64,000 nucleotides of DNA from Escherichia coli (GTDB lineage Bacteria; Pseudomonadota; Gammaproteobacteria; Enterobacterales; Enterobacteriaceae), in assembly GCF_024223415.1 (NCBI RefSeq), contig NZ_CP100500.1; one strand, written 5' to 3'. Every line of letters begins with the position of its first letter. The stretch's first letter is position 1. Below are positions 52,153 to 64,000 of the stretch, piece by piece. A model generated the notes under the pieces. The model had not been told where the DNA came from and made no database searches. It worked only from the letters and a program-made list of their open reading frames with translations. The position numbers and the translations under genes are program-made.

Positions 52153-52753
52153 AATTCACAGGTGTTTTTTCCCATCCTGTGGTTTCCTTGGCGTTTTCTA
52201 GGTTTTTTCAGATAGTTGCATTTTTTTAAAAGCATCCTAAGTTCGATCTCAGTGTCTATCTGGGGCCTATTTCTGTCCCATATATGCCCCAAAAAACTCC
52301 CCAACAGATAAGTAGTTTTTTCATGGATTTACGCGTAAAATCAATAACGGCTGGAAATCATTCAATACTCGCACTATCGAAAAATTTACCAGCCAACCGC
52401 AGCACGTTCTTGCATAAGGTGTGTCTGCGGTTTTTCAACTATTCAGATACATCACTCCCATCACATTCATTCCTCCACATCAAAGGCATATAGGCTATAT
52501 CACCTTGATATTTTTCTTCTTCAGATAAAAACTGTTATCTATGTATACTTTTAAACCCAATCCGTGTAGAGTCTCTGCATAAGATAGTTTGCAGTTGCCA
52601 CTTCAGATTGCGCCATAAACCGCCTGATTTTTGCCGCCACCTGTTAGCATTCCTGTATACCTGAAACGACAATGTTTATCTACGAACTTTAAGAACACCC
52701 AAGATAAAATTGTCAACTATATCATATATAACACATTACTAATTCGAGGCTAT

Positions 52754-52867
52754 ATGAACAGCATACTGATAATCACTTCTCTCCTTATCATATTCAGCAT
52801 TTTTAGTCATGCCCTAATAAAATTAGGGATTGGCATATCCAATAACCCAGACAAAACCGATGTATAA
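52754..52867 (+). CDS. hypothetical 37-aa hydrophobic peptide (candidate small membrane protein)
   Basis: ATG 52754 preceded by [41 protein letters not shown]; no homology claim. Confidence 0.25.
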
Positions 52868-52935
52868 GTCAACATATCCTGAATCAGACATACAATATCG
52901 CAATGAAAATCAATAATATTTTAAGGAATATCTTC

Positions 52936-53169
52936 ATGAAATCAAAAGACACCCTAAAGTGGTTCCCTGCGCAGCTTCCTGAAGTAAGAATTATCCTAGG
53001 GGATGCTGTAGTGGAAGTAGCAAAACAGGGAAGACCTATCAATACCAGAACATTGCTTGATTACATTGAAGGAAACATAAAGAAAAAATCATGGCTGGAT
53101 AACAAAGAATTATTACAAACAGCGATATCAGTTCTTAAAGACAACCAAAATTTAAATGGTAAAATGTAA
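52936..53169 (+). CDS. ydfK: prophage cold-shock-associated protein YdfK (77 aa)
   Basis: Start at ATG 52936 (MKSKDTLKWFPAQLPEV…); matches recalled YdfK/YnaE family. Confidence 0.85.
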   Translation: MKSKDTLKWFPAQLPEVRIILGDAVVEVAKQGRPINTRTLLDYIEGNIKKKSWLDNKELLQTAISVLKDNQNLNGKM

Positions 53170-53485
53170 TATAATAAACTTACTTTTTTATCATTTTTCC
53201 ACTTTAACAACATTTTGCTCCACTTTTCCACGACCAAACAACTTGAAATCTGGTTAAAATAACACGCAACACTATTCTTCTTCCTTGAGTCCGCCCGGAA
53301 CTCGAAAAACAAACCGAGTTAAAGCCATTTTTCACAAAATCGATTTTGGGTCTCACCAAAGTTACGGGGTTGCATACGCATTCGTTTATTTTCGAACGTG
53401 TACATACAAATATGCACAAAAATAATCAAAATTATTTTCTGAGATGCATTATGATATGAACACCAATTTCGTATAGAGTCTCACT

Positions 53486-54076
53486 ATGTCTCGAATTTTT
53501 GCTTACTGTCGGATATCAACGCTGGATCAGACCACCGAAAATCAACGCCGGGAAATCGAAAGTGCAGGTTTTAAAATCAAACCTCAGCAAATAATCGAAG
53601 AACACATTAGCGGCTCAGCAGCAACCAGTGAGCGTCCTGGTTTTAACCGGTTGCTTGCTCGCCTGAAATGTGGTGATCAATTGATTGTGACAAAACTGGA
53701 TCGCCTTGGTTGTAATGCAATGGATATCAGGAAAACAGTGGAACAACTGACCGAAACAGGTATCAGAGTGCATTGCTTAGCATTGGGGGGCATTGACCTG
53801 ACCAGTCCAACAGGAAAAATGATGATGCACGTAATTTCAGCAGTCGCTGAATTTGAACGAGACCTTTTACTTGAACGAACTCATTCCGGGATAGTAAGAG
53901 CCCGCGGCGCAGGGAAACGTTTTGGTCGACCACCTGTGTTAAATGAAGAACAGAAACAGGTGGTATTCGAACGAATTAAGTCAGGTGTAAGTATAAGTGC
54001 CATTGCCCGGGAATTCAAAACCTCGCGGCAAACCATTTTAAGAGCCAAAGCAAAACTTCAGACACCTGACATATAA
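53486..54076 (+). CDS. pinQ: serine-recombinase DNA invertase Pin (196 aa)
   Basis: [20 protein letters not shown]… resolvase/invertase catalytic domain plus C-terminal HTH. Confidence 0.95.
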
Positions 54077-54173
54077 AAAATAATCTCGGTGTGAGATGCT
54101 TTACGTCTTCCAAGCCCCCTTCCTTGCCGTAAATGGAAAGATACATCTAATTATAGAATTTATATGTTTTACC

Positions 54174-62103: not shown

Positions 62104-62744
62104 TTGTCGGTATACCTCTCTCGTTTACTCAGTTGTTCAGGAATATGGTGCAGCAGCTCGCCGTCACCACAGTAAATAGCGGCATGATTCGGCACCGATG
62201 AACCAAAACAGCACAGCAGCACATCGCCCGGCTGCGCCGCTGACAACGGCACCTGATATAGCCCCGTTGCCTCCAGATTATCCAGATAGAGATTCTGACC
62301 GTGACGCCACCAGTCATCCTCACGATGAAAATCCGGCATCTCAATCCCCGCCAGATGGTAAGCATCCCGGAACAGCGTGTAACAGTCCGTCACCCCGTGC
62401 TCAAAGCGCCGCCCGGTGAGATGCGGCACACAGCGGAATTTATGAATCTCACCCCGGCAGACCAGCCACCACGGCAAATCACTCTGCACCTGCAGCCGCC
62501 GGTCGGCCTCACTCAGCCAGGGCAGACCACCGGGGTGGCTGTGGACCAGCGCCACAATCTCACCCTGCATCTCTGCCCGCAGCCAGTCCTCCGGCGACAT
62601 CCGGAAATACGCCTCCGGCTCACCGGAGATATTCACGCAGGGAAAATATCTTTCCCCCTCCGGTGTTCTCACCACGAAGCCGCACGACTCCGCTGGCGCA
62701 CATCGCCGGGCGTGCGCCAGAATCGCTGATTCTGTCTGTGTCAT
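62001..62744 (-). CDS. K: tail assembly protein K, NlpC/P60 plus JAB/MPN-like (247 aa)
   Basis: Start placed at MTQTESAILAHARRCAPAESCGFVV…; HSHP metal-binding motif. Confidence 0.9.
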   Translation of the reverse strand: MTQTESAILAHARRCAPAESCGFVVRTPEGERYFPCVNISGEPEAYFRMSPEDWLRAEMQGEIVALVHSHPGGLPWLSEADRRLQVQSDLPWWLVCRGEIHKFRCVPHLTGRRFEHGVTDCYTLFRDAYHLAGIEMPDFHREDDWWRHGQNLYLDNLEATGLYQVPLSAAQPGDVLLCCFGSSVPNHAAIYCGDGELLHHIPEQLSKRERYTDKWQRRTHSLWRHRAWHASAFTGIYNDLAAASTFV

Positions 62745-62748
62745 GGGA

Positions 62749-63447
62749 TTACTGCGAAAGTTTGTTAATGGAAAGGAAGCCGCCAAAGTTGCCGACGTTA
62801 TTGCGAAACTTACAACCACTCAGGCATTTGCTGCATTTATCCTTCGTGATATCGGACGTCGGCTGGTCATATTCATCAGCGACAGCCGGACCGCTATAAC
62901 CGCACTCATCACCGCGATAGGTCCAGGTGCAGGTGTTGGCCAGCATGATGCGCCCCGGAAAAACAGCACCATCCGTTTCCGTCGGTGTGGAGAGCACAAA
63001 GGAGGCACTGACCGCACTCAGTTCGCTGCACTGCTCGATGCGCCAGCGGCTGATCACCTCCTGCTCCGGATCGGCGTCACTGTTTCCGTTGACGAAGTTC
63101 ACCGCATCCAGAAAACGGGCGTAAACCTTACGCCGGACCACCGTTCCTCCGACCAGACTCTGCAGGTCTTCCGCCATCCCGGTGACCATGCCGTGCAGGT
63201 TAGAAACCGTCAGTGTCGGACGGGCAGCACTGCCTTTGCCGTTCAGTTCAAATCCCGTCCCCTGAATGGGATACGCCTGATACTGTCGCCTCTGCCAGGT
63301 GACCGGCTCACCTTTATCGTTCTGCTCATTACAGAAAAAATAACGTTCTCCACCGACCACTGTCAGATCGATTTCCCAGAGCACCACCTGGGCTGACTGA
63401 GTGAGGCGTGTCGTCTCATGATGTGTTTCCTGTGGAATATCCTGCAT
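62749..63447 (-). CDS. L: minor tail protein L (232 aa)
   Basis: 232-aa ORF in the lambda L position. Confidence 0.9.
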   Translation of the reverse strand: MQDIPQETHHETTRLTQSAQVVLWEIDLTVVGGERYFFCNEQNDKGEPVTWQRRQYQAYPIQGTGFELNGKGSAARPTLTVSNLHGMVTGMAEDLQSLVGGTVVRRKVYARFLDAVNFVNGNSDADPEQEVISRWRIEQCSELSAVSASFVLSTPTETDGAVFPGRIMLANTCTWTYRGDECGYSGPAVADEYDQPTSDITKDKCSKCLSGCKFRNNVGNFGGFLSINKLSQ

Positions 63448-63456
63448 CAGAGACTC

Positions 63457-63786
63457 CTATGCCACGACCTGTTCAAAATCTGCCGTTATGGTTACCCACA
63501 ACGCCCCCACGCTTGCCGACCATTTACGACAAACCACCCTGATCGGCTTCCAGTCATAAGGTGGCGTCCACTGAAATGCGCGGACGCCACCGTGCCGTTC
63601 CAGAAAGGCTTTTAAAGATGGGTGTTCACATTTACGAACACGTATCGTCACGCTGTAAATCGACAACTGGTTATTCAGTCCCGCCGCACGACGCTGTTCA
63701 TAACCATCGCCCAGCTTCACTGTCACCACTTTCGGCTCTGATACCACATTCATATCCGGGCGCACTTTCCAGTGAAACGTCTCCAT
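63457..63786 (-). CDS. M: minor tail protein M (109 aa)
   Basis: 109-aa ORF in the lambda M position. Confidence 0.9.
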   Translation of the reverse strand: METFHWKVRPDMNVVSEPKVVTVKLGDGYEQRRAAGLNNQLSIYSVTIRVRKCEHPSLKAFLERHGGVRAFQWTPPYDWKPIRVVCRKWSASVGALWVTITADFEQVVA

Positions 63787-64000
63787 TACCGATATGCTCC
63801 ACTTAACCGACCACCATCACGGGCCTGCTGTTGCATAAAGTCCGCTGCCGCTTTTTTCCCAAGGTCATAAACCACCTTCAGGGCAGCCGGACCTATCTGC
63901 CCGTTCGTGCCATCGTTATTGATCTCGATGTTGTACTGCGGGGCAAACATCGCCATACCTGAACCACCAATATCCGCCACAACCCCCAGCTTACCGTCAG
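63786..64000 (-). CDS. H: tape measure protein H, C-terminal end only; gene continues past window end
   Basis: Open minus-strand frame to the window edge ending …QQQARDGGRLSGAYR; stop overlaps M start. Confidence 0.8.
   Translation of the reverse strand, partial: DGKLGVVADIGGSGMAMFAPQYNIEINNDGTNGQIGPAALKVVYDLGKKAAADFMQQQARDGGRLSGAYR

Follow-up and report, generated by a model that had tools for sequence, protein, structure and literature searches.

An intact lambda-like tail module at the attR-proximal end of a Qin-type lambdoid prophage in Escherichia coli ydfJ

In this Escherichia coli genome, the transporter gene ydfJ breaks off abruptly and adjoins phage DNA, in which genes typical of the cryptic K-12 prophage Qin lie next to tail genes arranged as in phage lambda. 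The question is what kind of element this is. A preliminary description took it for a more complete relative of Qin at the same integration site; a decayed remnant, or a hybrid of two phages, could in principle look similar. The window (the whole stretch analysed, 64,000 nucleotides of contig NZ_CP100500.1) ends within the element, and its positions 52144–64000 almost certainly belong to a lambdoid prophage of the Qin type (mEp460-like), of which they form the end proximal to attR.

The bacterial side of attR is occupied by ydfJ' (50869–52152, minus strand; Pfam MFS_1, E = 2.6e-37), which encodes a transporter of the MHS family within the MFS. Its ORF of 427 aa is identical over 100% of its residues to K-12 YdfJ' and lacks the first 28 codons and the promoter. 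The number of missing codons follows from a reconstruction: when attL of the related E. coli prophage in ST866 (NZ_CP077646) is fused to ydfJ of the window, a 455-aa ORF is restored. This agrees with published work, according to which Qin sits in the 5' end of ydfJ with the loss of 28 codons (PMC6379469). The junction itself contains an att core, TTATGGATTTC (52144–52154, minus strand), that is exact over 11 bp and extends to 16 bp if one 1-nt indel is allowed. The same core is found, without change, at attL of ST866 (positions 2693–2703 of the extracted locus) and at attP of the free phage mEp460_ev081 (24761–24771 of the extracted locus), whose attP homology reaches position 52144 of the window. 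The abrupt break in ydfJ with adjoining prophage DNA is therefore as first described, but the boundary originally drawn at 52152/52153 lies inside the att core, because the shared core spans 52144–52154. It had also been proposed that the break falls inside a transmembrane helix. This is plausible, as the break comes some 6–7 positions into the Pfam MFS_1 profile, but the reading draws on the register of that profile only; Kyte–Doolittle values (19-residue window, rebuilt YdfJ N-terminus) are 0.5–1.1 around the break, under the threshold for a transmembrane segment.

A comparison of both junctions with an uninterrupted ydfJ, which the preliminary description had called for, was carried out on 5426 complete E. 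coli genomes. The rebuilt, uninterrupted rspB–ydfJ junction is intact in 2011 of them, and the rebuilt attB matches such intact sites at up to 99.7% identity. The rspB–ydfJ site is split in about 60% of these genomes, and the tail end is present in full, as here, in about 10%. The phage probably integrated by site-specific recombination, catalysed by a tyrosine integrase, at the 11-bp core TTATGGATTTC, which the three att sequences together would place at about codons 27–31 of ydfJ. Integration would have separated ydfJ from its promoter and first 28 codons, a separation that can be read directly from the junction. Excision is predicted to yield the junctions ...GAATTTATGGATTTCCAGTTATATTCG... 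for attB and ...GAATTATGGATTTCAAGAGTCATACG... for attP.

Immediately past the junction, the GC content falls from about 0.47 to 0.34–0.38 and remains in this range throughout an AT-rich, non-coding P arm that extends from the core to ynfT (52155–52753). The P arm is 98% identical to the attP-proximal DNA of mEp460_ev081; a 69-aa ORF within it (52284–52493) had no match in the protein family search. The P arm is followed by three genes on the plus strand. The first, ynfT (52754–52867), encodes a small protein of 37 aa from the YnaM/YnfT family (NCBIfam NF041477, E = 1.2e-17; 100% identity to K-12 YnfT). It is followed by ydfK (52936–53169; 77 aa, annotated as a cold-shock protein, 100% identity to K-12 YdfK) and pinQ (53486–54076), which encodes a small serine recombinase of 196 aa with Pfam Resolvase and HTH_7 domains and 98.5% identity to K-12 PinQ. 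These three genes may be regarded as the equivalent of the 'b-region'. A 21-nt direct repeat in this area (52555–52575 and 53462–53482, 81% identical) is within chance expectation. On the minus strand, tfa (54174–54749) encodes a tail fibre assembly protein of the TfaQ type (Pfam Caudo_TAP, E = 3e-44), with 94% identity to lambda Tfa and 96% to K-12 TfaQ. An Rfam scan of the prophage part returned only an IS009 match within tfa (54208–54406) and no new RNA.

The assignment of ydfK and pinQ to the Qin type is thus borne out by their identity to the K-12 proteins, and the whole attR-proximal set of ynfT, ydfK, pinQ and tfaQ is present in K-12 order at 96–100% amino acid identity. DNA identity to K-12 is 98.4% across the chromosomal part and on into Qin as far as position 54945, and an additional patch reaches 55443. 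Together with the common att core in ydfJ and about 8.6 kb of intact tail genes that are absent from K-12, this supports, for the visible part of the prophage, the reading of a Qin relative that is more complete and occupies the same site.

The remainder of the visible prophage is a tail module in the order H'–M–L–K–I–J–lom–stf–tfa, all on the minus strand; apart from H', which is cut by the end of the window, each gene is a single intact ORF with no frameshift. The side tail fibre gene stf (54749–57247) is intact and encodes 832 aa with the Pfam domains phage_tail_N, Phage_fiber_2 and Collar; its product is 72% identical to lambda orf-401 in its N-terminal part and 72% identical to orf-314 in its C-terminal part, and the gene contains internal repeats of 132 nt each (55953–56348). 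The gene lom (57312–57911) encodes an outer-membrane β-barrel protein of the Ail/Lom family (Pfam Ail_Lom, E = 2.8e-121; 44% identity to lambda Lom), and J (57982–61395) the tail tip and host specificity protein of 1137 aa, with six J-specific Pfam domains and 88% overall identity to lambda J. The tail tip assembly genes I (61456–62103; Pfam Lambda_tail_I, 78% to lambda I) and K (62001–62744; Pfam Prok-JAB, that is JAB/MPN, and NLPC_P60, 97% to lambda K) are followed by those for the minor tail proteins L (62749–63447; TIGR01600 phage_tail_L, E = 3e-97, 92% to lambda L) and M (63457–63786; 55% to lambda M over its full length). Finally, the tape-measure gene is represented by its 3' end, H' (63786–64000), which is 53% identical to residues 785–850 of lambda H and collinear with the tape-measure genes of ST866 and mEp460_ev081, both 3066 nt long.

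The collinearity with lambda that was initially noticed extends to fine detail. The top lambda match of each ORF is its positional counterpart. The K/I overlap is 103 nt in both cases (62001–62103 here, 14773–14875 in lambda), although its length depends on the start call, because some RefSeq annotations put the start of I later; the gap between I and J is 60 nt in both (61396–61455 and 15445–15504, respectively). The tail-tip components M, L, K, I and J share 55–97% of their residues with those of lambda, with Pfam or NCBIfam matches for L, K, I and J. The visible part encodes a complete lambda-type distal tail, comprising the C-terminus of the tape-measure protein and, as proteins of the tip complex, M, L, K, I and J; next to these come Stf, the side tail fibre, with Tfa for its assembly, as well as Lom, an outer-membrane protein expressed in the lysogen.

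One component departs from the lambda pattern. Over its first ~975 aa, J shares about 97% of its residues with lambda J, but over its last ~150 aa only about 34%, so that a lambda-type, LamB-binding C-terminal domain was not found. In contrast, its last 158 aa are 100% identical to those of mEp460_ev081 and phage ASU11. The receptor-binding domain at the C-terminus of J has been swapped and is of the mEp460_ev081 type; the J tip in this genome is not of the lambda LamB type, and the use of LamB should not be assumed, given the low identity over the last ~150 aa.

The presence of a serine recombinase gene about 100 bp from the 3' end of tfa raises the possibility that pinQ, stf and tfa form an invertible host-range switch in cis, of the Gin/Cin/Pin type. 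This proximity is what speaks for such a switch, yet the prophage part contains neither a AAACCNNGGTTT-type nor an e14 pix-type site: a search with AAACCNNGGTTT allowing at most one mismatch gave four chance-level matches, all outside the prophage, and the published e14 repeat TTGGTTTGGGAGAAGG had zero matches at up to three mismatches. Inverted repeats returned by a repeat search are short and 73–87% complementary, and none around the stf C-terminus and tfa is convincing. An opposed alternative tfa'/stf' cassette is seen neither here nor in phage Kati. PinQ itself is only distantly similar to Gin, which is its best match among solved structures (E = 2e-30, 109 bits), and its reported identity to PinE is 38% (PMC12529663); it is not a close relative of the Din-family recombinases (Gin/Cin/Pin/Hin) and scores far below the cut-offs of the NCBIfam invertase models. 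A switch in cis is hence extremely improbable, and with neither crossover sites nor an opposed cassette, an invertible segment for pinQ is effectively refuted for the window. In trans, PinQ has been reported to invert the P segment of e14 and to block adsorption of T2 (PMC12529663, 2025); pinQ of the window matches the recombinase in that report.

Beyond position 64000, relatives show what such a prophage may contain. The nine intact tail ORFs suggest that this copy may be complete and possibly inducible, going by its sequence. Of the 5426 complete E. coli genomes, 573 carry the same tail end beside ydfJ, counted as at least 80% of window positions 50000–64000 found in one place. The best match is 98.4% identical, which is too distant for any sequenced relative to serve as a proxy for the source genome, and exact-sequence searches with Stf (832 aa) and J (1137 aa) had no match. 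Two relatives were inspected, in ST866 and in NCTC10444 (NZ_LR134092). Both are prophages of about 44 kb with integrase, excisionase, lysis, terminase, portal and capsid genes, in the order int–xis–...–lysis–terminase–portal–capsid–tail–J–lom–stf–tfa–pinQ–ydfK–ynfT–ydfJ'; an integrase and excisionase of the Qin type are present in both, next to attL beside rspB, and also in mEp460_ev081.

The same relatives bear on the idea that only the tail end is intact, the rest having suffered deletions or IS insertions, as in K-12 but at other positions, such that no phage is made. The size of prophages at the Qin site varies between 11 and 97 kb, and mutations in intQ are frequent (PMC6379469). The prophages of ST866 and NCTC10444 contain IS insertions and a few pseudogenes, for which reason some copies with an intact tail may still be defective, and the window stops in H with the prophage past 64000 out of view. 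Such a remnant is nevertheless unlikely, if by no means negligible: the nine tail ORFs are full length with no frameshift, both inspected relatives retain int, xis, lysis and head genes, and near-identical modules occur in plaque-forming phages. In viable phages including mEp460, mEp460_ev081, PhiR42_1 and Kati, the module is found at 94–97% identity; viable phages also have their attP in common with this prophage, and mEp460_ev081 has been described as a functional Qin-like phage (bioRxiv 10.1101/2023.04.14.536235).

A different origin would be a hybrid, in which a resident Qin remnant kept the segment from attR through ynfT, ydfK and pinQ to tfa and acquired its tail genes from another lambdoid phage by homologous exchange; the element would then not be a more complete Qin by descent. 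Identity to ST866 does shift at the stf repeats, from 99.4% (to 56534) to 97.5% (from 56511), lambdoid phages are mosaic, behind these ends NCTC10444 carries an immunity region of another kind, and the C-terminal domain of J is itself swapped relative to lambda. However, the order and the junctions from H to attP are the same in free phages such as mEp460_ev081 (96.9–98.2% in the aligned parts), and therefore a hybrid need not be invoked; in this family a mosaic make-up is usual and confers no alternative identity. Such a history is considered distinctly improbable.

The tail-end configuration is frequent and already described (PMC6379469; bioRxiv 10.1101/2023.04.14.536235), and the element is an ordinary prophage of the Qin/mEp460 type; the fitting annotation is a Qin-type lambdoid prophage whose tail module is intact. 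Conceivably, the ~32 kb beyond the window could form a complete, inducible mEp460-like phage with cargo or defence genes absent from sequenced relatives, and the J domain and a trans-acting PinQ could confer an undescribed host-range or anti-phage phenotype; this combination is very unlikely.

Compared with known systems, the element shares its insertion point in ydfJ and its att core with the cryptic prophage Qin (Kim) of K-12 MG1655 (NC_000913.3, 1632277–1652745), as well as the right arm from ynfT to tfaQ. The K-12 prophage matches that of the window at 52144–55443 only. As stated in the preliminary description, K-12 Qin has neither J nor lom and its stf is truncated; also missing are I, K, L, M and H together with all head genes, and its stfQ is a 320-aa fragment that adjoins and overlaps nohA, whereas the window has the full tail set with a whole stf. 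Mapped against the ST866 prophage, K-12 Qin is a derivative of this kind of phage in which a stretch that begins close to the terminase genes and runs to the middle of stf, about 22 kb in all, has given way to about 1.4 kb; it is a deletion derivative of a phage family (mEp460-like) that is still circulating.

The tail region of lambda (H–M–L–K–I–J–lom–stf–tfa; NC_001416, 10542–22557) has the same order and orientation. L, K and Tfa are 92–97% identical between the two, while M, Lom and the C-terminus of H reach only 44–55%. The single intact stf of the window contrasts with the frameshifted orf-401/orf-314 of laboratory lambda. Downstream, the window has pinQ, ydfK and ynfT where lambda has ea47, ea31 and ea59, and the att sites differ.

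The prophages of ST866 and NCTC10444 share the site and gene order at 97.5–99.4% DNA identity, but their stf genes are 462 nt longer, and Stf of the window is 154 aa shorter than the ST866 copy. Close temperate phages are mEp460 (JQ182728), mEp460_ev081 (LR597641), PhiR42_1, PhiR68_2, Kati, Tritos and 2H10; these are free, plaque-forming phages. Of these, mEp460_ev081 is collinear with the window from the 3' end of H to attP, with 96.9–98.2% identity in aligned blocks that cover 52141–64000 except for the middle of stf, which is variable. Stf has 832 aa here and 1023 aa in mEp460_ev081, a difference due to the copy number of the repeats; the att core and the receptor-binding domain of J are identical in the two, and both carry the same pinQ and ydfK.

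The window very probably holds the right-hand end of a lambdoid prophage of the Qin type, similar to mEp460. This reading follows from the layouts of the ydfJ-site prophages in E. coli ST866 (NZ_CP077646; L001) and NCTC10444 (NZ_LR134092; L006), from matches to phages, and from an attachment core shared with attP of the temperate phage mEp460_ev081 (LR597641; L003). The truncated ydfJ' (minus strand, 5' end at 52152) is a 427-aa MFS transporter ORF whose product is 100% identical to K-12 YdfJ', and GC content falls from about 0.47 to 0.34-0.38 directly past its 5' end. The preliminary description had ydfJ cut at 52152 with prophage DNA beyond; the ORF end, the GC drop and the att core all bear this out.

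When the window was turned to phage-genome orientation and set against K-12, ST866 and mEp460_ev081, its alignment with K-12 and ST866 was unbroken across the junction; that with mEp460_ev081 stopped at window 52144. An exact 11-bp core, TTATGGATTTC, is common to attR in the window (52144-52154), attP of mEp460_ev081 (L003 24761-24771), where it lies between the ydfK homologue and the integrase gene, and attL of ST866 (L001 2693-2703) and K-12. With a 1-nt indel allowed, the core lengthens to 16 bp, and the indel variants segregate as expected, with the attB form at attL and the attP form at attR; this split places the predicted crossover within the 11-bp core. When the left arm of ST866 attL is joined to the window's ydfJ, an ORF of 455 aa starting MTIEKHERSTKDLVKAAVSGWLGTALEF-MDFQLY is regained, so the prophage took off 28 codons and the promoter of ydfJ; this is the published cost of Qin insertion at the ydfJ 5' end (PMC6379469). 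Of the 5426 complete E. coli genomes, 2011 carry the rebuilt 611-nt attB uninterrupted, with 100% coverage and identity reaching 99.7%; in most of the remainder it is split. The comparison with an uninterrupted ydfJ that the preliminary description proposed is thus positive.

The tail genes, all on the minus strand, had been described as collinear with those of lambda (NC_001416), and the ORF map reproduces this exactly. The 3' end of the tape-measure gene H (63786-64000; C-terminus 53% identical to lambda H) is cut by the window end. It is followed by M (63457-63786; 55% identical to its lambda counterpart), L (62749-63447; 92%), K (62001-62744; 97%), I (61456-62103; 78%), J (57982-61395; 88%), lom (57312-57911; 44%), stf (54749-57247; 72% to both lambda stf halves, orf-401 and orf-314) and tfa (54174-54749; 94%). 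The K/I overlap of 103 nt (lambda 14773-14875) and the I-J gap of 60 nt (lambda 15445-15504) have the same lengths in both. All tail ORFs are unbroken and each aligns full length with its lambda counterpart; judged from these reading frames, the distal tail gene set is complete and intact in the window. By analogy with lambda, the tail tip would be assembled on the tape measure from M, L, K, I and J, the C-terminal part of J would bind a receptor in the outer membrane, Stf with Tfa would form the side fibres, and Lom would be produced by the lysogen as a protein of its outer membrane. A match to Rfam IS009 (54208-54406, minus strand) falls within the tfa coding sequence and scores 227 bits against a gathering score of 117; it is probably a leftover of an old RNA candidate that was built on K-12 tfa DNA, not a gene of its own.

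Identity between J and lambda J is about 97% as far as residue ~975 and drops to about 34% in the final ~150 residues. The mosaic boundary is sharp, and the divergent end comprises the last ~158 codons (57982-58458, minus strand). This terminal domain occurs without change (100% identity) in mEp460_ev081 and phage ASU11, and several Stx-converting phages (Stx1a and Stx2c) have one that is 94% identical. As the J end has diverged from lambda and matches other phages, use of LamB as its receptor should not be assumed. The stf gene contains three tandem 132-nt (44-aa) repeats (55953-56534, minus strand); identity to the first repeat is 76% for the second and 62% for the third. Compared with the copies in ST866 and NCTC10444, the gene lacks 462 nt with the reading frame kept, and the length gap against ST866 maps to the repeat region; it is also shorter than the stf genes of mEp460_ev081 (Stf of 1023 aa) and phage Kati (1132 aa).

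Convergent with tfa, and about 100 bp from its 3' end, lies pinQ (53486-54076, plus strand; 98.5% identical to K-12 PinQ); the ORF map also places ydfK (52936-53169) and ynfT (52754-52867) on the plus strand. Operation of pinQ as a Gin/Cin/Pin-type switch at this locus was considered and is rejected, because the prophage part of the window has neither a consensus crossover site nor an e14 pix repeat, the repeat search found no suitable inverted repeats, an opposed alternative cassette is absent from the window and from Kati, and PinQ matches Gin only distantly. Acting in trans, K-12 PinQ is reported to invert the P segment (1797 bp) of prophage e14, creating StfE2, which blocks T2 adsorption (PMC12529663, 2025). 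The 'orphan' pinQ arrangement is also kept by the intact phages mEp460_ev081 and Kati.

Close relatives are frequent. At least 80% of window 50000-64000 is found in one contiguous place in 573 of the 5426 complete genomes, and 1086 match by the same measure with the 24.5-kb query. The best complete RefSeq E. coli match to the 14-kb junction region stands at 98.4%, and the ST866 block aligned to 49283-56534 (ydfI, ydfJ' and the prophage right arm into stf) at 99.4%. Neither Stf nor J has an exact counterpart in the large protein-position index. In the chromosomal part, window 39500-50000 aligns with the best-matching genomes in several pieces over 30-32 kb, against the 24.5-kb query, so other strains have extra DNA inserted in this stretch compared with the window; the annotated genes include a carbohydrate porin. 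The chromosomal part also holds a full-length match to the Hfq-binding sRNA STnc560 of Rfam (42574-42787, minus strand; 282 bits).

Two of the best-matching genomes, ST866 and NCTC10444, were inspected in full. In ST866, a prophage of ~44 kb between rspB and ydfJ' carries integrase, excisionase, exo, ydfD, dicB, dicA/dicC, replication genes, hokD, rem, ydfU, the Q-like ydfT, csp genes, a lysis cassette, terminase, portal, a protease-capsid fusion and tail genes, ending in the order J-lom-stf-tfaQ-pinQ-ydfK-ynfT. The NCTC10444 prophage has the same layout with two IS insertions and another immunity region, an HTH repressor plus Cro/CI pair (L006 6974-7686) in contrast to dicA/dicC of ST866 (L001 8707-9428). 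Since identical ends accompany different immunity regions, 'Qin-type' denotes the att/int system and right arm and does not define a single immunity group. Plaque-forming phages of the phage collection also match the entire 11.8 kb: mEp460_ev081 (96% coverage, 97% identity), mEp460 (JQ182728), PhiR42_1, PhiR68_2, Kati, Tritos and 2H10. Going by these relatives, this strain's copy is fairly likely to be complete, with integrase, head, lysis and immunity genes; the window itself ends in H.

The configuration is real but ordinary, frequent and already described, and the preliminary description was right in both observation and interpretation. Qin-site prophages, 11 to 97 kb in size, occur in 48% of 638 genomes, with capsid, tape-measure and host-specificity genes in the larger ones (PMC6379469), and mEp460_ev081 is a functional temperate phage with dicB, dicF, dicA/C and rem (bioRxiv 10.1101/2023.04.14.536235); the Qin-type reading is established knowledge from these two sources.

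The proposed more complete relative of Qin at ydfJ is upheld by the att core, the intact tail genes, the full-length relatives and the mEp460_ev081 match. The annotated start of K-12 Qin is the position equivalent to window 52144, and Qin shares 98.4% identity with the window as far as 54945, after which a final matching patch reaches 55443. Beyond it K-12 has a 320-aa stfQ fragment adjoining and overlapping nohA, whereas stf is intact in the window; K-12 Qin is also without lom, J, I, K, L, M and H, all present in the window (H cut by its end). In alignment, ~22.4 kb of ST866 (L001 20975-43341), a stretch that starts close to the terminase genes and stops in the middle of stf, is missing from K-12 and replaced by ~1.4 kb. 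The K-12 annotation and this gap thus confirm the preliminary description, in which K-12 Qin has lost J and lom and retains a truncated stf.
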